Assembly: GCA_049513715.1 (NCBI GenBank)
Contig: JBEKVV010000002.1
Location: 165,548 to 197,547, forward strand
From: Candidatus Bathyarchaeia archaeon
GTDB lineage: Archaea > Thermoproteota > Bathyarchaeia > 40CM-2-53-6
Length of the DNA: 32,000 nt
Reading direction: 5' to 3'
Made by a program: the position numbers and the translations under genes. The notes under the pieces were generated by a model. It saw nothing but the letters and a program-made list of their open reading frames with translations. It did not search any database and was not told the origin of the DNA. Position 1 is the first letter of the stretch, and the number at the start of each line of letters is the position of its first letter. Below, one piece after another: positions 17,632 to 28,910 of the stretch.

Positions 17632-18726
17632 CTAGGCGACTACCTTCTTTAGGTATTGAATGTCTCCCCCGCTTTTCCGCTCTTTCCAGAATTGACAGAC
17701 TGCGTTGTTGCTTTCAAGATAGCGGTTCATGGCGACCTCGGAGACCATTTGAGCAGAGCGGGAGATTTCCGCGAGATTCCACACGACCCCCCTGAGGGCT
17801 AGTGCGACTTTGCGGTCCTGAACATTCACGACGACTTCCTCTGTGAGGGTCTTTTCCATCTCCTCAATGTGTCTGGTTCGTTCAATGACCCGATTTGCGA
17901 GGTCGACGTCGAGCACGCTTAGGGCATCCATGGCGCCTTTGGCGATTGCTAGGGATTCGACGCCGAACTTGCAGACGTCATCGATCGTTGCGGAGAATTG
18001 TGTGTACTTTTCGTCTGCCAGGGACAGTATGAGATTTGCAATAGACTCGCTGCAATCCGCCATCTCTTCTAGGTATTTCGAGACAGCTCTGTAACCGATA
18101 GCATGCGTCGCAGATTCTATCCCAACGTGTCGTGACAACGGGATCTTTGAGACGGCGCGGAATATTTGCCGCAGAATAAGCCAATAGAGCCTATCTGCTT
18201 CATTCTCGAGTTCCAAGACCTCTAGGGCCAGTGAGAACTTCCTATCCGTCAGGGCCTGCATCGCTGTCTCTAGCATTGAGACTGCGACTTTGTGCAGCCG
18301 TCCAAGGAGTCCCGTGATCGGGAATTTTGTGGGGTCCAAGAAGCATTGAATCACTGCTTCCTTCGGAGTCTGCTCTACTATTCCCAGCCCGCTCAGCCTT
18401 CGAGTGGAATCGCGGATTTCCGCGAGTTGTTCGGGGGTAAGTTCGTTGGAGGAAGAGATTATGATTGTGTCGCGGCCGAGGATGTAATTCCCTGTAATCA
18501 TTCTCTCTAGGAGTTCGCGGTCTTTGCATGCGTCTGCGTTGATCTTGCAGACAGTCATCTCCTCGGATTCCATTTCGCTGCCAGGGGTTACGACTAGCTC
18601 GCCGAATTCGGAGAGGCGAAGTGTGACTACGCCTCCTTGCTTTAACCCCACTTGCCTAACCCAATCTCTTGGTAGTGATACGGTTAATGTCGAGTGGCCG
18701 ACTCTCTGGACCTTTCTAATCTCCAA
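17632..18726 (-). CDS. AbrB/SpoVT-domain + PhoU-domain regulator (paralogue 1)
   Basis: The N-terminal swapped-hairpin motif MEIRKVQRVGHSTLTVSLPRDWVRQVGLKQGGVV, followed by two PhoU-like helical repeats (EADRLYWLILRQ..., ...WNLAEISRSAQMVSEVA). TTG start. Confidence 0.8.
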   Translation of the reverse strand: MEIRKVQRVGHSTLTVSLPRDWVRQVGLKQGGVVTLRLSEFGELVVTPGSEMESEEMTVCKINADACKDRELLERMITGNYILGRDTIIISSSNELTPEQLAEIRDSTRRLSGLGIVEQTPKEAVIQCFLDPTKFPITGLLGRLHKVAVSMLETAMQALTDRKFSLALEVLELENEADRLYWLILRQIFRAVSKIPLSRHVGIESATHAIGYRAVSKYLEEMADCSESIANLILSLADEKYTQFSATIDDVCKFGVESLAIAKGAMDALSVLDVDLANRVIERTRHIEEMEKTLTEEVVVNVQDRKVALALRGVVWNLAEISRSAQMVSEVAMNRYLESNNAVCQFWKERKSGGDIQYLKKVVA

Positions 18727-18880: not shown

Positions 18881-19279
18881 TCATTGAACTTCCGCTTTAG
18901 CCTCTGAAGGAAGCACCATCCGAACCTTTGTTATTACGCACTCATCACCCCCTTCGATAGCGAGGGGGTTTCCGCACTTTGGGCACTCCAATCGCGGCAG
19001 CCCGTAGTGGAACAGCGGTGGATCCTCAGGATTGAACTCCTCTCGGTAATTGCAGGTTGAACAGTGAACAGTGCCATTGGTTTCCTCCGTAATCAGCCTC
19101 GAGCCCTCCAACACTGTTCCTTTCGCAAGGATCTCGTAGGAGAACTTCACCTGCTCGACCGATAGTGCTCTGAGCTTCCCGACTTTCAGGTGGACTTCCA
19201 GCACCTGCTTCGGGCCCTGCTGCTTAACCAAGTCTAGTAGTGCTTCGACCAGGTATGTTGTGATTGTGAATTCATGCAT
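18881..19279 (-). CDS. hypA: hydrogenase nickel-insertion protein HypA
   Basis: MHEFTIT at the N-terminus (the conserved MHE Ni site) and zinc motifs CSTCN...CPKCG. The ORF track begins 4 codons earlier (19291); I prefer the MHEF start. Confidence 0.88.
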   Translation of the reverse strand: MHEFTITTYLVEALLDLVKQQGPKQVLEVHLKVGKLRALSVEQVKFSYEILAKGTVLEGSRLITEETNGTVHCSTCNYREEFNPEDPPLFHYGLPRLECPKCGNPLAIEGGDECVITKVRMVLPSEAKAEVQ

Positions 19280-19297
19280 GCGATGCGCCATCTATGC

Positions 19298-20044
19298 CTA
19301 GCTCAGGCCGAGATGCTTGATGACCTCGTCCACCCCTAGCCCGGTTTTGCAGCTCGTCGGAACTGCTTTTGCTTTAGGGTTGAGTCTTGCAATGTCATCC
19401 ATCAACTTCTCAGGTTTCACATCCATGGCCTCTGCAAGGTCGACCTTGTTTATTGCAACTACGTTTGCGCCCAAAAAAATCATGGGGTGCTTGAGTACCA
19501 TGTACGGCCCCTCGGTTACGCTGATGACGACTAGGCGTTTGTCAGCTCCTAACGGGAATTCGGAGGGGCAGATGAGGTTTCCAACGTTTTCGATGAAGAT
19601 AAGATCGAGCTTGTCCAATGGGATCTTGTCCAGTGCTTTCTTGATGAGGTTTGCGTCCAAGTGGCACTCTTTGCCCGTGTTTACTTGAACTGTGGGCACG
19701 CCCTCCTCAGCGATGATGTCGGCGTCTATGGTGGTTGTGACGTCCCCTTCAATCACTGCCAACCGATGCTTCTTCTTCAACCGAGAAACAACCGCTTTGA
19801 TTAGCGAGGTTTTTCCAGAACCCACTGACCCCATTACATCGATGGCGTGAACCCCGTGGGATTCGAGGCGTTCTTTGTTCTCGTTTGCCAAGCGTTGATT
19901 CTCTCTTAGAATATTGATTTCGAGCTCGACATCGTATACTTCGCCTTCGGAGGCGGTGATGACGTCAGTTAGTTTGGTCAATGTGATCACGATTCGGAAG
20001 TCCGTCGTCCTCGTTATGAACGTGATTGCTGGTTTCCTCAGCAA
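19298..20044 (-). CDS. hypB: hydrogenase nickel-incorporation GTPase HypB
   Basis: P-loop GSVGSGKTSLI, ENVGNLICP and NKVDL (G4). The start is uncertain: TTG at 20044, with in-frame GTG at 19990 and TTG at 19981. A TATA-like string at 20056-20066 argues for a downstream start. Confidence 0.88.
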   Translation of the reverse strand: MLRKPAITFITRTTDFRIVITLTKLTDVITASEGEVYDVELEINILRENQRLANENKERLESHGVHAIDVMGSVGSGKTSLIKAVVSRLKKKHRLAVIEGDVTTTIDADIIAEEGVPTVQVNTGKECHLDANLIKKALDKIPLDKLDLIFIENVGNLICPSEFPLGADKRLVVISVTEGPYMVLKHPMIFLGANVVAINKVDLAEAMDVKPEKLMDDIARLNPKAKAVPTSCKTGLGVDEVIKHLGLS

Positions 20045-20154
20045 TGGGGCATCGAGGATATATTGGTCGAGGAGTTGGCTTCATCCCATTTGTGGGTATG
20101 GCGTCACAAACATATAGCTATGACATATGAAATGTTTTGTGGGATGCAGTCGAC

Positions 20155-20394
20155 GTGTGCCTCAGCTTTCCAGGAAAAATAATGGAAATCAACGGGGAAC
20201 TGGCCACGGTCGACTATGGTGAAGACGGCGTTAGGAAAAACGTTAACGTATCTCTCGTGGAAGCTCAGCTCGGAAGCTACGTTCTCGTTCAAGGAGGATT
20301 CGCCATTAGAGTCCTTCCCGAAAAGGAAGCCCTAGAGACGCTTGAGACTTGGAAGATGGTTCGAGAACTGCAAAACTCGCCGGAGGTGCCTTAG
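20155..20394 (+). CDS. hypC: hydrogenase assembly chaperone HypC/HupF
   Basis: A GTG start gives the N-terminus M-CLSFPGKIMEI with the essential Cys2. The C-terminal motif GSYVLVQGGFAIRVL has Gln where HypC normally has His. Confidence 0.85.
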   Translation: MCLSFPGKIMEINGELATVDYGEDGVRKNVNVSLVEAQLGSYVLVQGGFAIRVLPEKEALETLETWKMVRELQNSPEVP

Positions 20395-20396
20395 AA

Positions 20397-21173
20397 TTGC
20401 CGTCTCGAACGGACGGAGCGATTCTAGCCGCACGTCACAGTTTCATGCCCAACCGCCTCGGCTATTGCGGCCCGGATGAGAATGATGTCTTGCTCGATGC
20501 CTGCGTAAACAACCGCAGCAGCAAACCGCTAATCGAGGCCCTGAAGGGGTTCCAGGCTGCGTTTCCTTACCTGAAATTCATCGCCCAATCTCTGGGCATA
20601 GATGATCCATTCAACTACCGGGTAGTTGAGGCGTACTGGATTGGCAATGATGCCCTGCAAAGGATACCGCTGGACGGGTTCTATGATCACTTGAGGGAGC
20701 GATTGAAGGCCAAGTTCACGAAGGAGCAGGTCAAGAAACTCTTCGAAGCACAACCATACGCACCGTTCCCCCATCACGCATTGCACGTCTTCAACGCATT
20801 CTCCACAATGGGTACGGTTCCGGACTCGTTTGCAACTGGGACTGGACCCGACGACACAGTTGGGAAGATGATGGATAAGTGCAAAATCTCTTGGGGAAGA
20901 ATTATCGGCCCCGATGATAAGGGCAATTTGATCGTAGAATACGAACCCGTAGAACGACATGACGGGAAGCTGTCATTGGGTCAGCCCGCTAAAGCGAAAG
21001 TCGCATTCGAGGCCCAAGGCCGAAGCTTCGTCAACGGCGCGAAGCCTGGTGATTGGATTTCATTCCACTGGGGCTTTGCTTGCACAACTCTTACCCCGTT
21101 GCAAGTAGCTAATTTGAGGAAATACACTTTAGCCGACATGGCTCTATCAAACAGAGTTCCCATCCATCAGTAA
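20397..21173 (+). CDS. uncharacterised conserved protein with NRLGYCGP motif and HypC-like C-terminal segment
   Basis: An in-frame TTG lies 3 nt after the hypC stop (an alternative ATG is at 20445). The N-terminal region has PNRLGYCGP. The C-terminal ~70 aa end in GDWISFHWGFACTTLTPLQVANL, which resembles the HypC core motif. I have a vague recollection of a DUF family with this N-terminal motif but cannot confirm it. Confidence 0.55.
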   Translation: MPSRTDGAILAARHSFMPNRLGYCGPDENDVLLDACVNNRSSKPLIEALKGFQAAFPYLKFIAQSLGIDDPFNYRVVEAYWIGNDALQRIPLDGFYDHLRERLKAKFTKEQVKKLFEAQPYAPFPHHALHVFNAFSTMGTVPDSFATGTGPDDTVGKMMDKCKISWGRIIGPDDKGNLIVEYEPVERHDGKLSLGQPAKAKVAFEAQGRSFVNGAKPGDWISFHWGFACTTLTPLQVANLRKYTLADMALSNRVPIHQ

Positions 21174-21197: not shown

Positions 21198-22421
21198 ATG
21201 TCTTTGCGTAACCGTTGGGCAATTGCCACGTTGACCAGTGCTGGCGTCTTCGTTACCTACATGCTTCGCTTCAATATTTCACCGATTGGGCAGCTAATCT
21301 CAACGGACCTTCATCTTTCTGATTTTGAGCTGGGACTAGTTCTGTCTGGGTCGCTTTGGATTTACACTCTCATGCAGCCTGTTGCAGGCCTGATTACGGA
21401 TCGGTATGGAGCGAAGCTGAGTCTCCTCTTCGGAGGGATGGCCACGTCGGTTCTAACGGTAGCTTCCGGTTTTGCAGGTTCATTTTACGCGCTCCTCGGT
21501 ATGCGAGTTATCATTGGGGCGACGCAGGCCCCGAATTTTGTCACTGGTGCGAGCGTAACCTCTTCCGAATGGTTCAATAAGAGTCAGAAAGCTCGTGCTA
21601 CTTCAATTTGGATTTCTGGCGGACGATTCGGCCAGGTGTTGACGCTACCTTTCGCAGCTTGGTTAGGGGTGGTCTATGGTTGGCAGTGGGCTTTCTTTGT
21701 GACGGGGTTGTTCGGAATCGCTTGGTGCACTGCCTGGTACATTGGGTTCCAAAACAACCCTCCAGAGTCGTCACGAAGAAAAGAAGGGCCCGCGAGGAAG
21801 AGCCTAAGCATTCGCCAAAGTCTTCTCGCTGTACTTACCCCGTTAGGGTTTGGGTTCGCGTTGGCTAGCTTCGGCCAGGGCTACGTGGCATATTATCTGA
21901 ACCTGTGGTTGCCCACGTACTTGGTAAGGCAGCAGAAGTTCACGATACTTAATGCTGGAATCTTCTCGACCCTGCCATTCATTGCGCTTGTGGTCACGTT
22001 ACTTCTCATAGGTGGGGTTGCTTCCGATTATGTTGTGAAACGCGGTGCCTCACCCGTGGGGTTTCGGCGGAATCTTTTCTCAGTCGGCATGGTATTGACG
22101 GCGATCATGCTTTTCGCCTCTGCCTACGCTCCGGACCCGTACACTGCTGTGGCCGCAATCAGCGTAGCAGGCGCGTGTTTGGGTTTCTCGACGCCATCTT
22201 TGTGGGTGGCGATGGTTGAGTCAACTCCGAGGGAAGTGACCGGGGCGATGGGAGGGATTCAGAACCTTGGTGGTAATCTTGCCGGGATTGTGGTTTCTAT
22301 TTTGACGGGATATCTTTTGCAAGTTACGAAGAGTTTCTTCTTGGCCTTGCTCGCGGGTGCGGGCGTGGCGTTGCTTGGCGCGGTGGCGGCATTTGTGCTG
22401 ATCAGGCCGAGGAAGAAATGA
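21198..22421 (+). CDS. MFS transporter (anion:cation symporter-like)
   Basis: About 12 TM segments. The loop 2-3 motif GLITDRYGAK and the overall pattern are typical of MFS_1/ACS-family organic-anion permeases. It starts 24 nt after the preceding gene. Confidence 0.8.
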   Translation: MSLRNRWAIATLTSAGVFVTYMLRFNISPIGQLISTDLHLSDFELGLVLSGSLWIYTLMQPVAGLITDRYGAKLSLLFGGMATSVLTVASGFAGSFYALLGMRVIIGATQAPNFVTGASVTSSEWFNKSQKARATSIWISGGRFGQVLTLPFAAWLGVVYGWQWAFFVTGLFGIAWCTAWYIGFQNNPPESSRRKEGPARKSLSIRQSLLAVLTPLGFGFALASFGQGYVAYYLNLWLPTYLVRQQKFTILNAGIFSTLPFIALVVTLLLIGGVASDYVVKRGASPVGFRRNLFSVGMVLTAIMLFASAYAPDPYTAVAAISVAGACLGFSTPSLWVAMVESTPREVTGAMGGIQNLGGNLAGIVVSILTGYLLQVTKSFFLALLAGAGVALLGAVAAFVLIRPRKK

Positions 22422-22587: not shown

Positions 22588-23007
22588 ATGCGAAACCAGC
22601 AGTTAATGGCACTTTTAAAAGACCAGCTCGACCACGAAGAGCAAGAAACCGAGGTCTACGCGCGCAAAATCCGAGAAACCAAGCACTCAGTCGCAAAACT
22701 AGTCTTCGCTAAGCTAATGAGAGATTCAATGCAACACGCTGACGTCTTGAACGGCGCAATCTTGTACTTGGCTAGGGATCAGTGGGAGGCACTGGCCCCC
22801 GTCAAAGAAACGCGCGAGGAGATGCTTCGGCTTATGGAAATGGGGGAGAAAGCCCTTAGACTATTCACATCAGCAACCACGCAGGTGAGTGATCCACATT
22901 TGAAGTCGCTGCTGACAATGCTCGCTTTGGACGAGGAGGAACACTACGGATTGCTCCGGTATGTGCTAGAGAATTTCGTTGAAAAGAAAGAGGCAGTAAA
23001 AGCATGA
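22588..23007 (+). CDS. ferritin-like/rubrerythrin-like four-helix-bundle protein
   Basis: Four predicted helices with acidic/His pairs (LDHEEQETEVY, RDSMQHADVL, MEMGEKAL, LALDEEEHYGLL). Only the second half has a clean ExxH. Its stop overlaps the next start (ATGA). Confidence 0.45.
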   Translation: MRNQQLMALLKDQLDHEEQETEVYARKIRETKHSVAKLVFAKLMRDSMQHADVLNGAILYLARDQWEALAPVKETREEMLRLMEMGEKALRLFTSATTQVSDPHLKSLLTMLALDEEEHYGLLRYVLENFVEKKEAVKA

Positions 23008-23252
23008 GTCAAACGACTGTTTTTCACCCACGAGCTAACGTCAAGATTCTAGATGAAAGTTGCAAGGCTTGCGAGCTTTGCGTTGTAACGTGTCCGCAAG
23101 GCAACTTGAAGTTATCAACAAGACTGAACCACGCGGGCTTTCACCCCGCAGAATTCACGTACCAAGGAACCAAAGGGCAATGCACGGGGTGCGCAATTTG
23201 CTACTGGGTTTGCCCAGATTTCGCGATCCATGAAGTACAGGTTGCTGTATGA
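23004..23252 (+). CDS. 2-oxoacid:ferredoxin oxidoreductase delta subunit (2x[4Fe-4S] ferredoxin)
   Basis: Two CxxCxxCxxxCP motifs (CKACELCVVTCP, CTGCAICYWVCP) in about 82 aa, directly upstream of the alpha subunit. Confidence 0.88.
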   Translation: MSQTTVFHPRANVKILDESCKACELCVVTCPQGNLKLSTRLNHAGFHPAEFTYQGTKGQCTGCAICYWVCPDFAIHEVQVAV

Positions 23253-23253
23253 T

Positions 23254-24330
23254 ATGGCCAAAGAACGAGTCTATTTGAAAGGTAACGAGGCTCTAGCGTA
23301 CGGTGCGTTGGAAGCAGGCCTGAACGCATACTTTGCTTACCCGATCACCCCGTCCAGCGAAATCCCAGAAACATTAGCAAAGGAATTCGGGAGCAAGAAA
23401 TACCCAGAGTTCAAGTTCTTTCTTCAAGCCGCCAGCGAGCTTGAAGCGATAAATATGGTCTTGGGAGCCGCCTCCGGTGGGGTGCTAACAATGACCGCCA
23501 CATCAAGCCCCGGCTACAGCTTGAAACAGGAAGGCCTTTCCTACGCTGTGGGAATGGAGTTGCCGTTCCTGATTACTGATATTTGCCGAGCTGGGCCAGG
23601 TTTGGGCAACCTCGGACCAGAGCAAAGTGATTACTTCCAAGCGACTAAGGGCGGTGGCCACGGCAACCATCGATTGTTCGTGTTGGCGCCAGCCTCTGTT
23701 CAAGAGATGGCCCTGTTTCCACGAATTGGATTTGACTTGGCGTTCAAGTACAGGAACCCCACACTGATTCTAGGTGACGCCTTCACAGGGCAATTGAAAG
23801 AAGACGTAGAGTTTCCAGACTTCAAACCCCCAGAATACGATGTTTCGTCATGGGCAACAACAGGAGCAGATGGGAGAGCGCCCCATATCTTGAACTCACT
23901 AGAACTCGACCTCCAGAAACACTACAAACACATTGAGAAGATCTTCGAGAAATACAAGCAAGCCGAAGCGAACGAGGTTCGATTTGAAGATTACATGACT
24001 GAAGATGCTGAGACGGTGATTGTGGCGTTTGGAATAGTGTCCCGCATCGCCAAAGGTGTCGTTAACAAGCTTCGAAAGAAGGGCGTCAAGGTTGGGTTGT
24101 TTAGGCCGATAACCCTTTGGCCGTTCCCGCATGTTGCCCTCCGGAAGCTCGCTTCGCAAGGTAAACGGTTCTTGGACGTAGAGTTGACAACGGGGCAGAT
24201 GATTGAGGATGTGAAGCTCGCTGTGGGTGATGGTGTTACTGTGGATTTCTTGGGAAAATGGGGCGGCCTCGTTCCAACGGAAGCGGAGATTGAAAGTAAG
24301 ATTCGGCGCTTGGAGGTGGTTGCAGCATGA
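23254..24330 (+). CDS. 2-oxoacid:ferredoxin oxidoreductase alpha subunit
   Basis: GNEALAYGALEAGLNAYFAYPITPSSEI is the canonical OFOR alpha N-terminus. The ATG at 23254, just after the delta stop, is preferred over the ORF-track start at 23230. Confidence 0.9.
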   Translation: MAKERVYLKGNEALAYGALEAGLNAYFAYPITPSSEIPETLAKEFGSKKYPEFKFFLQAASELEAINMVLGAASGGVLTMTATSSPGYSLKQEGLSYAVGMELPFLITDICRAGPGLGNLGPEQSDYFQATKGGGHGNHRLFVLAPASVQEMALFPRIGFDLAFKYRNPTLILGDAFTGQLKEDVEFPDFKPPEYDVSSWATTGADGRAPHILNSLELDLQKHYKHIEKIFEKYKQAEANEVRFEDYMTEDAETVIVAFGIVSRIAKGVVNKLRKKGVKVGLFRPITLWPFPHVALRKLASQGKRFLDVELTTGQMIEDVKLAVGDGVTVDFLGKWGGLVPTEAEIESKIRRLEVVAA

Positions 24331-25127
24331 GCCAACTAACCCTCAAAGTAAAGGCAGGTAAGCTCGAATCACTGACAGACAACCCTACGCACTACTGCGC
24401 AGGATGCGAACACGGAACACTAACCCGACTCATCGCCTCAGCAATGAACGAGCTGGGAATACGAGAAAAAACCGTCATGATTGACTCGGTCGGCTGCAGC
24501 GTACTAGCCTACAACTACTTCAACTGCGACCACATAATCGCGGCCCACGGTAGGGCCCCCGCCGTCGCCACAGGCCTCAAACGCGTCCGACCCGATTTGA
24601 TGGTCTATACGGTTCAGGGTGATGGAGACGCGGCCTCGATAGGCCTATTGGAACTCATCTATGCGGCGAAGAGAAATACACCGATAACTGTCTTCATGGT
24701 CAACAACGCAATCTACGGAATGACAGGCGGCCAAATGGCCCCAACCACCCTCGAAGGGCAGATTACAACAACGACACCATACGGCCGGGACCCAGCACTA
24801 ACTGGAACCGAGCTCGACGCCTCTAAGCTCGTAGCAGGTCTTGATGGACCTGCATACGTAAAGCGCGCCAGCCTAGTTGTCACAGAGCTCTCAACGTCAA
24901 GAGGAAAAGTGTACACCATCAAGAACCTGTTGGACGCAAAGAAATCAGTGGTCAACGCATTCAAAGTACAACAGATGGGGGGCTTCGCCTTCGTGGAATT
25001 CCTGAGCACTTGTTCAGTAAACTGGAAGATGTCGGTCCTGGACTCGAAGCGGTACGTGCAGGAGCACCTCATGAAGAAGTATCCGTTGGGTCTTTACAAG
25101 GACACTTTTGGAGTTGAGAAACAATGA
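24327..25127 (+). CDS. 2-oxoacid:ferredoxin oxidoreductase beta subunit (TPP-binding)
   Basis: YCAGCEHGT, the TPP motif VQGDGDA...NNAIYGMTGGQ, and an ATGA overlap with alpha. Confidence 0.9.
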   Translation: MSQLTLKVKAGKLESLTDNPTHYCAGCEHGTLTRLIASAMNELGIREKTVMIDSVGCSVLAYNYFNCDHIIAAHGRAPAVATGLKRVRPDLMVYTVQGDGDAASIGLLELIYAAKRNTPITVFMVNNAIYGMTGGQMAPTTLEGQITTTTPYGRDPALTGTELDASKLVAGLDGPAYVKRASLVVTELSTSRGKVYTIKNLLDAKKSVVNAFKVQQMGGFAFVEFLSTCSVNWKMSVLDSKRYVQEHLMKKYPLGLYKDTFGVEKQ

Positions 25128-25759
25128 GCAAGACTATGCTTCTGATCGCAGGCCACGGCGGACAGGGAGTGATGTTGCTTGGCGACTACATCGCATACGC
25201 CGCCATGCTCGAAGGAAAACACGTAGCATACACGCCATCATACGGCCCCGAAACGAGAGGGGGCAAAGCAAAGTGCTACGTCATAATCTCTGAAGAGGAA
25301 GTGGACAACCCAATAGCCGAGGAACCAGACATCGAACTCATCATGAACGAACCATCCATGGACTTCCTGAACTACCTTCGCAAGGACGGGATGATCGTAT
25401 ACAACACTTCCCTGGTAAGCACAGGTGTTGACCGAGATGACGTCAAGAAACTGGGTATTCCAGTCACAGAGATCGCTGAGGCCCTTAAGAAGGAATTGCC
25501 CTCTGAGGAGGTTCATGATACGAAGATGTTCGCTAACTCGGTGATGTTCGGTGCATTCATGGAGCTCTGCGCCCCCCAAATCAGCGACGACCGAATCAAG
25601 GAATCCCTCAAACACTTCCTAGCAGGCAAAAAAGAGAGCTTGCTTCCAATTAACCACTTAGCGATCATGAAAGGAAAGGAGTACGTTCGCGCACACCCAG
25701 TACCTGAAGTGAAGTCTGAGTGGCCGTTTCACTGCGTTCCTAGCTGGGCAGCGCAGTAG
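25124..25759 (+). CDS. 2-oxoacid:ferredoxin oxidoreductase gamma subunit
   Basis: IAGHGGQGVMLLGDYIAYAAMLEGKHVAYTPSYGPETRGGKA is the typical gamma-subunit motif. ATGA overlap with beta. Confidence 0.9.
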   Translation: MSKTMLLIAGHGGQGVMLLGDYIAYAAMLEGKHVAYTPSYGPETRGGKAKCYVIISEEEVDNPIAEEPDIELIMNEPSMDFLNYLRKDGMIVYNTSLVSTGVDRDDVKKLGIPVTEIAEALKKELPSEEVHDTKMFANSVMFGAFMELCAPQISDDRIKESLKHFLAGKKESLLPINHLAIMKGKEYVRAHPVPEVKSEWPFHCVPSWAAQ

Positions 25760-27845: not shown

Positions 27846-28910
27846 TTGGAAGCTAGAAAAGTTCAGAGGGTTGGATACTCAACCCTGACCGTGTCCCTGC
27901 CAAGGGATTGGGTCGAGGATGTTAAACTGAAAGCCGGCGACATTGTCTCAATCAAACGGGAAGATGACGGGACCCTAAAACTGATCCCAGGAACGGAGCA
28001 TAAGCGGGACGAGGTCAAGAACTGCATCGTCAATGCGGACATGTGTAACTCCGATCACCTTCTCACCCGAGTCATAACCGCCAATTACATTCTCGGGCAC
28101 GACACAATTCAAGTCCTCGCCAAGGACGAATTGAAGAAACATCATCTGGAAGAAGTGCGAACGACGACGCAACGTTTGACGGGGTTAAGCATTGTCGAGC
28201 AAACCCTCAAATCGGTGACCCTTCAGAGTTTTGTTGACCCGACTCGTTTTCCGATTTATGGACTCATGCGCCGCCTACACATTATCATCACATCCATGCT
28301 AGATGCGTCAATGAAGGCATTACTTGAGAGGCGTCCTGAACTTGCCGGCGAAGTCGCTCATATGGAGGAGGAGTCTGATAGGATTTATTGGTTGATTGTT
28401 CGGCAGCTACTTCTCGCAATACGCGACCGCAGCGTAGGATCTAAGATTGGCATCGAATCGCCAATCCACATACCCGGTAACAGGGTCGTGGCGAAGACGC
28501 TGGAGGAGATGGCGGATTCAGCCGAGAGCATTGCTAACGAGGTCTTGGTACTGAAGGACAAGGAAATTGTGAGCGAGGCCATTATACATGATGTTACAAG
28601 GTTCTGTGCGCAGGTCGTCAAGATTTCTGAACAGAGCATGAAAGCGCTACTAACCTCGGACATTATTCTTTCGAACGAGGCTGTTGAGTTGGTGGAGACT
28701 GCGGAGAACGATGAAAGGAAACTCACGCAGAAGATTCTCACTTTGAAGGATGTTGGCGTGGCCACCAGCTTACGAATAATAGTCTGGAACCTCGGCCAGA
28801 TCAGCAAGTACTGCAGAATAATCGGTGAGATCACTATAAACAGGATAATGGAGAGGCCCTCACAAATCTGCGAATACCTCCCAATCCCAGAAGGCAGAGC
28901 AGCAAGCTAG
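27846..28910 (+). CDS. AbrB/SpoVT-domain + PhoU-domain regulator (paralogue 2)
   Basis: MEARKVQRVGYSTLTVSLPRDWVEDVKLKAGDIV plus PhoU-like repeats (ESDRIYWLIVRQ, VWNLGQISKYCRIIGEI). It is collinear with the 17632-18726 protein, roughly 40% identical by eye. TTG start. Confidence 0.8.
   Translation: MEARKVQRVGYSTLTVSLPRDWVEDVKLKAGDIVSIKREDDGTLKLIPGTEHKRDEVKNCIVNADMCNSDHLLTRVITANYILGHDTIQVLAKDELKKHHLEEVRTTTQRLTGLSIVEQTLKSVTLQSFVDPTRFPIYGLMRRLHIIITSMLDASMKALLERRPELAGEVAHMEEESDRIYWLIVRQLLLAIRDRSVGSKIGIESPIHIPGNRVVAKTLEEMADSAESIANEVLVLKDKEIVSEAIIHDVTRFCAQVVKISEQSMKALLTSDIILSNEAVELVETAENDERKLTQKILTLKDVGVATSLRIIVWNLGQISKYCRIIGEITINRIMERPSQICEYLPIPEGRAAS

Follow-up and report, generated by a model that had tools for sequence, protein, structure and literature searches.

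In a 32,000-nt stretch of DNA from a Candidatus Bathyarchaeia archaeon (contig JBEKVV010000002.1, positions 165,548 to 197,547, forward strand; hereafter the window), the hydrogenase maturation gene hypC is followed by a gene of the Pfam family DUF6390 (PF19927). The C-terminal domain of the DUF6390 protein is HypC-derived, and conserved linkage across lineages makes the gene an accessory gene of [NiFe]-hydrogenase clusters, in which it lies almost constantly beside a HypC paralogue, usually one without the histidine found at position 51 of HypC (His51). DUF6390 is, on evidence that is computational throughout, a protein with the HypC fold whose architecture and partnership are new, and it probably helps hydrogenase assembly or metal supply. 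The balance tips, by a small amount, towards DUF6390 being an accessory factor of [NiFe]-hydrogenase biogenesis, which would act as a dedicated partner of the usually His-less HypC and would bind a metal or cofactor. The features on which this account draws first are the following, numbered from the first letter of the window.

20397..21173, plus strand: DUF6390-family gene (PF19927, E 4.8e-55, 187 bits; 258 aa; TTG start)
20397..20873, plus strand: N-terminal helical domain (aa 1-159), with Cys24 at 20466-20468, EAYWxGN at aa 78-84 and His126/His127/His130 at 20772-20786
20874..21170, plus strand: C-terminal HypC-like oligonucleotide/oligosaccharide-binding (OB) domain and helix (aa 160-258), with Cys162, His224-Trp225 and Cys229
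20155..20394, plus strand: hypC paralogue (79 aa; GTG start; PF01455, 78 bits; TIGR00074, 60 bits; MCLSFPGK)
20382..20388, plus strand: GGAGGTG, Shine-Dalgarno-like, within the 3' end of hypC and 8 nt ahead of the TTG, as seen in the sequence itself
21198..22421, plus strand: major facilitator superfamily (MFS) transporter gene, 24 nt after the DUF6390 stop (PF07690, E 7e-49)

The open reading frame (ORF) at 20397-21173, which has 258 codons, is a real gene, because it matches DUF6390 over its full length (187.1 bits against a gathering cut-off of 25, with residues 5-254 aligned to model positions 3-240 of 244), has many homologues (948 in one search and 2713 in another) and belongs to a family of 1308 clusters at 50% identity in a library of 1.84 billion proteins. 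One homologue, P0001, is of equal length and 99% identical. No NCBIfam model was matched in a search with the window ORF. The hypC stop codon (TAG, 20392-20394) is parted from the TTG at 20397 by two intervening bases, and hypC and DUF6390 genes abut or overlap in relatives too. The placement of the GGAGGTG element suggests that the two genes may be co-translated. The MFS gene, whose best NCBIfam similarity is to an anion:cation symporter subfamily (below cut-off), is probably in the same operon, and the order hypC-DUF6390-MFS recurs in a related locus (L087). An earlier reading by a model, made from the letters and ORFs of the window (the first-pass annotation), had placed the TTG start 3 nt after the hypC stop and the MFS gene 24 nt beyond the DUF6390 gene, and had singled out the motifs PNRLGYCGP (20448-20474) and GDWISFHWGFA (from 21048); all of these positions are correct.

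The HypC-like part of the protein comprises about 97 residues, from Cys162 (20880-20882) to the protein end, and includes the His224-Trp225 pair (21066-21071) and Cys229 (21081-21083). Single-sequence searches of Pfam, NCBIfam and the PDB gave only sub-threshold HypC matches, and profiles and structure were needed to bring out the relationship. For instance, the C-terminal domain by itself scored 13.8 bits (E 0.068) against PF01455, for which the cut-off is 28.5, and is not a HypC member by this curated score. A relative in the Nitrolancea-like locus L088 reached 16 bits against TIGR00074 (cut-off 48), and the PDB search returned a weak match to Thermococcus kodakarensis HypC (E 0.85). An HMMER profile built from 33 family members found T. 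kodakarensis HypC in the PDB at E 0.02. When C-terminal domains from 80 archaeal and bacterial members were compared by hhalign with a HypC alignment, the probability was 95.4% (E 1.7e-8, 70 columns), and the score was the same against bacterial HypCs only as against the full HypC set; in the control comparison, the DUF6390 N-terminal domain gave a probability of 0.1% against HypC. This alignment pairs Cys162 (in 'MDKC-R-I-S-W-G-R-V') with Cys2 of HypC (in 'MC-L-x-x-P-G-K-V'), and His224 with the His51 position.

The AlphaFold2 model of the full protein (mean predicted local distance difference test score, pLDDT, 82; predicted template modelling score, pTM, 0.84) is helical over residues 7-162, continues with barrel strands over residues 165-232 and closes with a helix at residues 234-252. 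Foldseek placed HypC structures at the top of its matches in the PDB (3vyr_A and 2z1c_B; probability 0.98-1.0, TM-score 0.50-0.62 on the target), with generic ribosomal S17-type OB folds ranking after them. The first-pass annotation had likened the last ~70 residues to a HypC core and had proposed a profile comparison with PF01455. The likeness is upheld by hhalign, Foldseek and HMMER, with the single sequence staying sub-threshold, and the length has to be revised to the ~97 residues given above. It had further stated that the protein keeps the His of HypC and has no N-terminal Cys; both statements are accurate, but the invariant internal Cys162 aligns to Cys2.

With the HypC/HybG/HupF/HoxL family (PF01455, TIGR00074), the DUF6390 tail shares the OB barrel and C-terminal helix, the 'C-x-x-x-[PW]-G-x-V' start, the 'GDW/Y-V-x-x-H-x-G-F/W-A' core and the equivalent Cys and His, and the gene is likewise encoded in hyp/hydrogenase clusters. 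In contrast to HypC, in which the Cys is residue 2, DUF6390 has its Cys at position 162, where a helix precedes it. It also differs in the conserved 160-residue domain in front of this Cys, in the extra, invariant or nearly invariant, Trp225 and Cys229, and in scores that lie below the family cut-offs. Moreover, its gene is additional to that of a true HypC and does not replace it.

The 80 aligned sequences on which residue conservation was assessed come from archaea and from 6 or more bacterial phyla. C24, H127, C162, H224 and W225 are 100% invariant, and H126, H130 and C229 reach 97% conservation or more. Within the N-terminal domain, the most conserved positions of the family are G7, P18-N19, C24-G25, E78-A-Y-W-x-G-N84 and H126/H127/H130. 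Pfam gives this domain no relative besides DUF6390, and a search of the PDB with the domain modelled alone by AlphaFold2 returned no fold match (best E 1.7). The invariant 'PHHxLHVFNxFS' stretch (aa 121-140) is the sole poorly predicted segment, both in the full-length model and in that of the N-terminal domain alone, which would be compatible with ordering only upon binding of a ligand or partner.

The HypC of the window is a family member by score (78 bits against PF01455) and by its Cys2 (20158-20160), and its key His residue is atypical, with Gln46 (CAA, 20290-20292) standing at the His51 position, as the first-pass annotation had recognized. Gln is kept at this position in ~58 clusters related to the window HypC, and nearly all close relatives of this HypC carry it. 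His51 is located at the HypC-HypD interface, where it promotes HypD binding and client selectivity, and it is not strictly essential (PMC9002611; PMC12134894). HypCs adjoining DUF6390 always have Cys2, whereas ~85% of them carry Tyr, Asn, Gln, Asp or Ser at the His position and only ~10 of 66 keep the His. The residue replacing His tracks the type of the neighbouring hydrogenase. The two nearest His-bearing relatives of the window HypC are found in hypF-hypC-hypD-hypE clusters without DUF6390.

For comparison, a sample of 80 HypC-anchored metagenome loci, biased toward relatives of one His-type HypC, contained DUF6390 in 0 of 80 loci and HypD after HypC in at least 27 of the 57 loci with room downstream. 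All 60 comparison HypCs, which are those not matching the His-containing search pattern, carry the His (five of them judged by eye). A Fisher test of His loss against a DUF6390 neighbour gave p ~1e-23, with loci that are not phylogenetically independent. The first-pass annotation had raised the question of whether HypCs with Gln for His always co-occur with this gene. The outcome is positive (His in ~10 of 66 HypCs beside DUF6390, versus 60 of 60 in the comparison), but the pairing is not strict, since some HypCs beside DUF6390 have the His.

DUF6390 is carried by at least 584 species in a scan of one genome per species. The carriers include Bathyarchaeia, many Chloroflexota, Patescibacteria (Saccharibacteria and Buchananbacteria), Dormibacterota and Nitrolancea hollandica, together with gammaproteobacterial and actinomycetotal metagenome-assembled genomes (MAGs). 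In loci with enough upstream DNA, hypC lies within 1.5 kb of DUF6390 in 61 of 74, and of these it is directly adjacent in 38 and parted only by an EamA-family transporter gene in 21. Of the 41 loci that extend 5 kb or more to either side, 28 encode a [NiFe] large subunit; the active-site motifs of these subunits resemble those of groups 1h, 2a, cytochrome-b-linked group 1, 3b, 3c and 4. Neighbours confirmed by Pfam are NiFeSe_Hases, small subunits, a HycI-type protease, HypA, HypB, NifU-Rieske proteins, DUF5947/DUF6084, cytochrome b and CbiM. A full operon is present in the Nitrolancea-like locus L088, which encodes in order a small subunit, a large subunit, NifU/Rieske, DUF5947, DUF6084, an unassigned gene, a protease, DUF6893, HypA, HypB, HypC, DUF6390 and a further unassigned gene. 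The Bathyarchaeia relatives keep hypA-hypB divergent from hypC-DUF6390, often with an MFS gene next, and one of them has Hdr/Mvh hydrogenase genes ~8 kb off. The linkage of the family to hyp or hydrogenase genes, on which the first-pass annotation had made its proposal depend, is tight and involves both hypC and [NiFe]-hydrogenase genes across phyla. A motif search for HypD, HypE and HypF found none in 82 DUF6390 loci, and the notion that DUF6390 is part of a hypCDEF module was rejected on that ground. A few automatic annotations name DUF6390 members 'hydrogenase maturation factor'.

Two further observations concern these clusters. In Patescibacteria and gammaproteobacterial MAGs (loci L016-L019, L026, L055, L067 and L075-L078), the group-3b-like large subunits lack a C-terminal extension and have the His of DPCxxCxxH as their very last residue, and the group-3b-like loci contain no maturation protease gene where gene order was visible. 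In T. roseum (Thermomicrobium roseum), the operon trd_1873-1862 consists of hupD, a hypothetical gene, hypA, hypB, hypC, a 'HypC homolog' (trd_1868), hypD, hypE and, further on, hypF and a dipeptide ABC transporter (PMC6776052, Table S1). This 'HypC homolog' is ~2-fold up in stationary phase along with the hyp operon (PMC6776052); trd_1868 may be a member of DUF6390.

DUF6390 is also linked to transporters. An EamA-family transporter gene is found directly upstream of it in 29 bacterial loci, with a gap of less than 140 nt, and CbiM is encoded upstream of hypC in Patescibacteria and gammaproteobacterial loci. In Thermomicrobiales-type loci, DUF6390 is followed by a ~400-aa protein and an SBP5-type (Nik/Opp-like) ATP-binding cassette (ABC) system. 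The ~400-aa protein, which has no NCBIfam or PDB match, is encoded directly after DUF6390 wherever an SBP5-type ABC transporter is nearby, and may be in the same functional unit.

L088:10784-12022, L089:10937-12142 and L093:2466-3650: ~400-aa protein, with faint ThuA/DUF4159 similarity only

Fusions account for the longer family members. They comprise EamA-DUF6390, DUF6390 preceded by a helix-turn-helix (HTH) domain of the XRE, PadR, GntR or ArsR type, and DUF6390-MarR; the HTH-bearing members are P0190, P0198, P0199, P0205, P0228 and P0309 (loci L090-L097). When a single domain is found combined with a range of unrelated HTH families, it is usually one that senses a ligand or metal. The fused forms retain the invariant Cys and His, and their genes have ABC uptake systems after them or on both sides, with two still directly behind hypC. 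The DUF6390 protein of the window has no HTH domain according to Pfam. EamA and DUF6390 are joined in one polypeptide in P0196 (563 aa), and in L069:1-1272 they share one frame with no stop between them. Such a polypeptide is a Rosetta-stone link to a transporter of the drug/metabolite transporter (DMT) family. A tandem-duplicated DUF6390 paralogue was considered and rejected, as the second ORF is the EamA transporter, which had been clustered through one fused ORF. In locus L089 (JGI Ga0500083_000008, 104858-125616), DUF6390 and the ~400-aa protein lie between two SBP5 ABC systems, and only a small-subunit fragment and a 39-aa ORF occupy the place where hypC would be. This locus looks like a decayed hydrogenase cluster that has retained DUF6390 and the transporters.

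In the preferred mechanism, which is inferred from neighbours, fusions and conservation, DUF6390 would be co-translated with HypC and would bind a metal species at a Cys/His site built from residues of both of its domains. Candidates for this species are nickel, iron and the Fe(CN)2CO unit. DUF6390 and HypC would then act at a late point of large-subunit maturation, the stage of HypA, HypB, the protease and nickel insertion, and not in the chemistry of HypD, HypE and HypF. The transporter neighbours and the EamA and HTH fusions suggest that, in some lineages, ligand-bound DUF6390 may also link metal transport or gene expression with the assembly of hydrogenase. Of the elements of this account, homology, domain architecture, conservation, synteny and fusions are shown, and metal binding, a complex with HypC and the stage of action are inferred.

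Several points weigh against a role as accessory factor and HypC partner. An internal Cys162 cannot use a free N-terminus as Cys2 of HypC does. The pairing with a His-less HypC is not strict, given the ~10 adjacent HypCs that have the His. In addition, ~11 DUF6390 loci have no detectable hypC, some family members sit only with transporters (L089 and L090), and the SBP5 proteins near DUF6390 score below the NikA cut-offs. The window, as the first-pass annotation had pointed out, contains no hydrogenase structural genes and no hypD, hypE or hypF, although hypA and hypB are present. Finally, no paper was found that mentions DUF6390, its domain structure, its pairing with HypC or its fusions.

A more elaborate version of the same idea joins the His-less HypC and DUF6390 into a two-protein metal/cofactor unit that uses the Cys and His of DUF6390 and serves maturation as well as regulators and transporters that match uptake. 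According to this version, the uptake of nickel or iron would be matched to the state of hydrogenase assembly through the HTH and EamA fusions. Taken as a whole, it is a tentative proposal, for which we would claim no better than a low probability.

Only a little further down the scale, and on the whole unlikely, is a split scaffold for Fe(CN)2CO, in which the HypC-like domain of DUF6390 would dock on HypD and supply the His missing from the adjacent HypC, together with a Cys, and the Fe(CN)2CO unit would be built or held on a complex of HypC, DUF6390 and HypD. In HypC, the residues aligned with Cys162 and His224 are the two that are implicated in binding Fe(CN)2CO and in contacting HypD, the HypCs adjoining DUF6390 are strongly depleted of His, and DUF6390 fills the slot after hypC that hypD holds in canonical clusters. 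The T. roseum 'HypC homolog' annotated between hypC and hypD would also speak for a split scaffold if it is a DUF6390 member. Against this, DUF6390 adjoined hypD, hypE or hypF in none of the 82 loci and groups instead with hypA, hypB and the protease, and the 160-residue domain before Cys162 may not fit the HypD cleft that takes the HypC N-terminus. Where the adjacent HypC has retained its His, His224 is just as invariant, so that no complementary pattern is seen. The HTH and transporter fusions would also be left unexplained; together with the coupling to transporters, they point at least as strongly to metal/ligand binding and sensing as to a scaffold. The first-pass annotation had favoured a two-protein or specialized scaffold for metallocentre assembly. 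This is partly supported: the family is tightly linked to hypC, whereas the Fe(CN)2CO scaffold role is not favoured by the hypA/hypB/protease context and the transporter and HTH fusions.

The fusions lend themselves to yet another reading, namely that DUF6390 is mainly a metal- or ligand-sensing regulator of transporters or promoters, which would respond to nickel, iron or a chelate and of which the stand-alone copies in hydrogenase clusters would regulate supply without taking part in cofactor insertion. Its fusion partners comprise five HTH families and an EamA transporter, ABC uptake systems follow or surround the fused forms, EamA stands directly upstream in the 29 loci mentioned above, and L089 keeps DUF6390 and two ABC systems with its hydrogenase genes reduced to a fragment. 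However, most members, including that of the window, have no DNA-binding domain, and Pfam and PDB fold searches gave no resemblance to a known sensor family. The near-constant and apparently translationally coupled pairing with HypC, which persists even in HTH fusions, implies a partner in the maturation pathway. Sensing as the main function is a distinctly doubtful choice when set beside the accessory-factor reading.

It is very improbable that DUF6390 is an enzyme which produces or alters a small molecule used in hydrogenase assembly (a ligand precursor or metal chelator, for example), with its substrate or product moved by the neighbouring EamA, MFS or ABC transporter. The many invariant polar and aromatic residues of the N-terminal domain (PN, EAYWxGN and PHHxxHV) and the association with three transporter classes would be in keeping with catalysis, and the sources of the CO ligand under anaerobic conditions and of iron are still open questions (PMC12134894). 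Nevertheless, no similarity to an enzyme family or fold and no cofactor- or nucleotide-binding motif was found, and fusion with such a variety of HTH types would be more characteristic of a sensor domain. A chance resemblance to HypC through a generic OB fold, with a fortuitous neighbourhood and no tie to hydrogenase, can be regarded as effectively excluded: the sub-threshold PF01455 match (13.8 versus 28.5 bits), the many ribosomal S17 OB folds in the Foldseek list and the lack of a hydrogenase in the window speak for it, but hhalign aligned both hallmark residues at 95% against a control of 0.1%, Foldseek placed HypC first, and hypC is near in 61 of 74 loci, in archaeal loci and in those of several bacterial phyla, accompanied by hydrogenase structural genes.

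An accessory factor beyond HypCDEF has a precedent in the HoxL-HoxV and HupF-HupK scaffold pairs of aerobic uptake hydrogenases, which likewise consist of an operon-encoded HypC paralogue and a larger Cys-bearing partner; the parallel is drawn from established knowledge and a review (PMC12134894). HoxV and HupK, however, resemble the hydrogenase large subunit, whereas DUF6390 combines a HypC-like domain with a novel helical domain, and no sequence relation between HoxV/HupK and DUF6390 was found. With the nickel chaperones and regulators HypA, HypB, SlyD, NikR, RcnR/InrS and NmtR, DUF6390 has in common a neighbourhood of hypA, hypB, CbiM and Nik/Opp-type ABC systems, invariant Cys and His residues and, in some relatives, an HTH domain encoded upstream of uptake systems. 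Unlike these proteins, to which it has no sequence or fold similarity, the DUF6390 protein of the window has no DNA-binding domain, and its binding of nickel is hypothetical. Like hypD, the DUF6390 gene comes directly after hypC, its start touching or overlapping the hypC stop, and the product has conserved Cys/His motifs as HypD does. It is, on the other hand, ~100 residues shorter than HypD and has no four-Cys cluster motif. It gave no match to PF01924 or to a HypD model of NCBIfam, and GPGCPVC and GFETT are absent by inspection; CGxHxH was not searched for.

In Pfam, DUF6390 is entered as a family of unknown function, and its HypC-like domain, its linkage to hypC and its fusions were worked out here. 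The first-pass annotation had regarded the protein as undescribed, which is right in that no paper describing the family was found and wrong in that the family had already been catalogued. Maturation of [NiFe]-hydrogenases is carried out by six Hyp proteins and a few lineage-specific helpers. A 2025 review (PMC12134894) counts among the points still open where the iron comes from, what supplies CO under anaerobic conditions and how HypC hands over to the large subunit. DUF6390 is a concrete new candidate for this field, and it is worth testing because it has a HypC fold, adjoins a variant HypC and is unstudied. Its pairing with HypC is offered as an account of the puzzling loss of His in many HypCs, and the HTH and transporter fusions offer a way into the question of how cells coordinate the supply of metal with the assembly of hydrogenase. 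DUF6390 may also be required for the heterologous production of these hydrogenases. The carriers span soil Chloroflexota that are abundant and scavenge atmospheric H2, Patescibacteria with reduced genomes and Bathyarchaeia.

The remaining features around hypC in the window are as follows.

20045..20154, no strand: divergent intergenic region between hypB and hypC, carrying CACAAACATATAGC at 20105-20118
19298..20044, minus strand: hypB, a CobW/HypB-type NTPase, divergent from hypC (PF02492, E 5e-24)
18881..19291, minus strand: hypA, a nickel metallochaperone (PF01155, E 1.8e-23)
17632..18726, minus strand: AbrB/MazE-like and PhoU-domain protein, next to hypA (PF01895, PF04014)

The synteny of hypA and hypB is conserved in Bathyarchaeia loci, and the AbrB/MazE-like and PhoU-domain gene is syntenic in L001/L002, L083 and L087. 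An alignment of five intergenic regions from related Bathyarchaeia loci showed that CACAAACATATAGC is partly conserved, and it is a probable TATA/BRE element with putative promoter function. An inverted repeat was suspected in the same intergenic region, and a repeat finder gave it no support. A second AbrB/MazE-like and PhoU-domain paralogue is encoded in the window at 27846-28910, and both proteins may be regulators. Downstream of the MFS gene, at 22588-25759, the window has a rubrerythrin-like gene, a small ferredoxin ORF and a three-gene cluster for a 2-oxoacid:ferredoxin oxidoreductase, an arrangement that is syntenic in L083 and L087.

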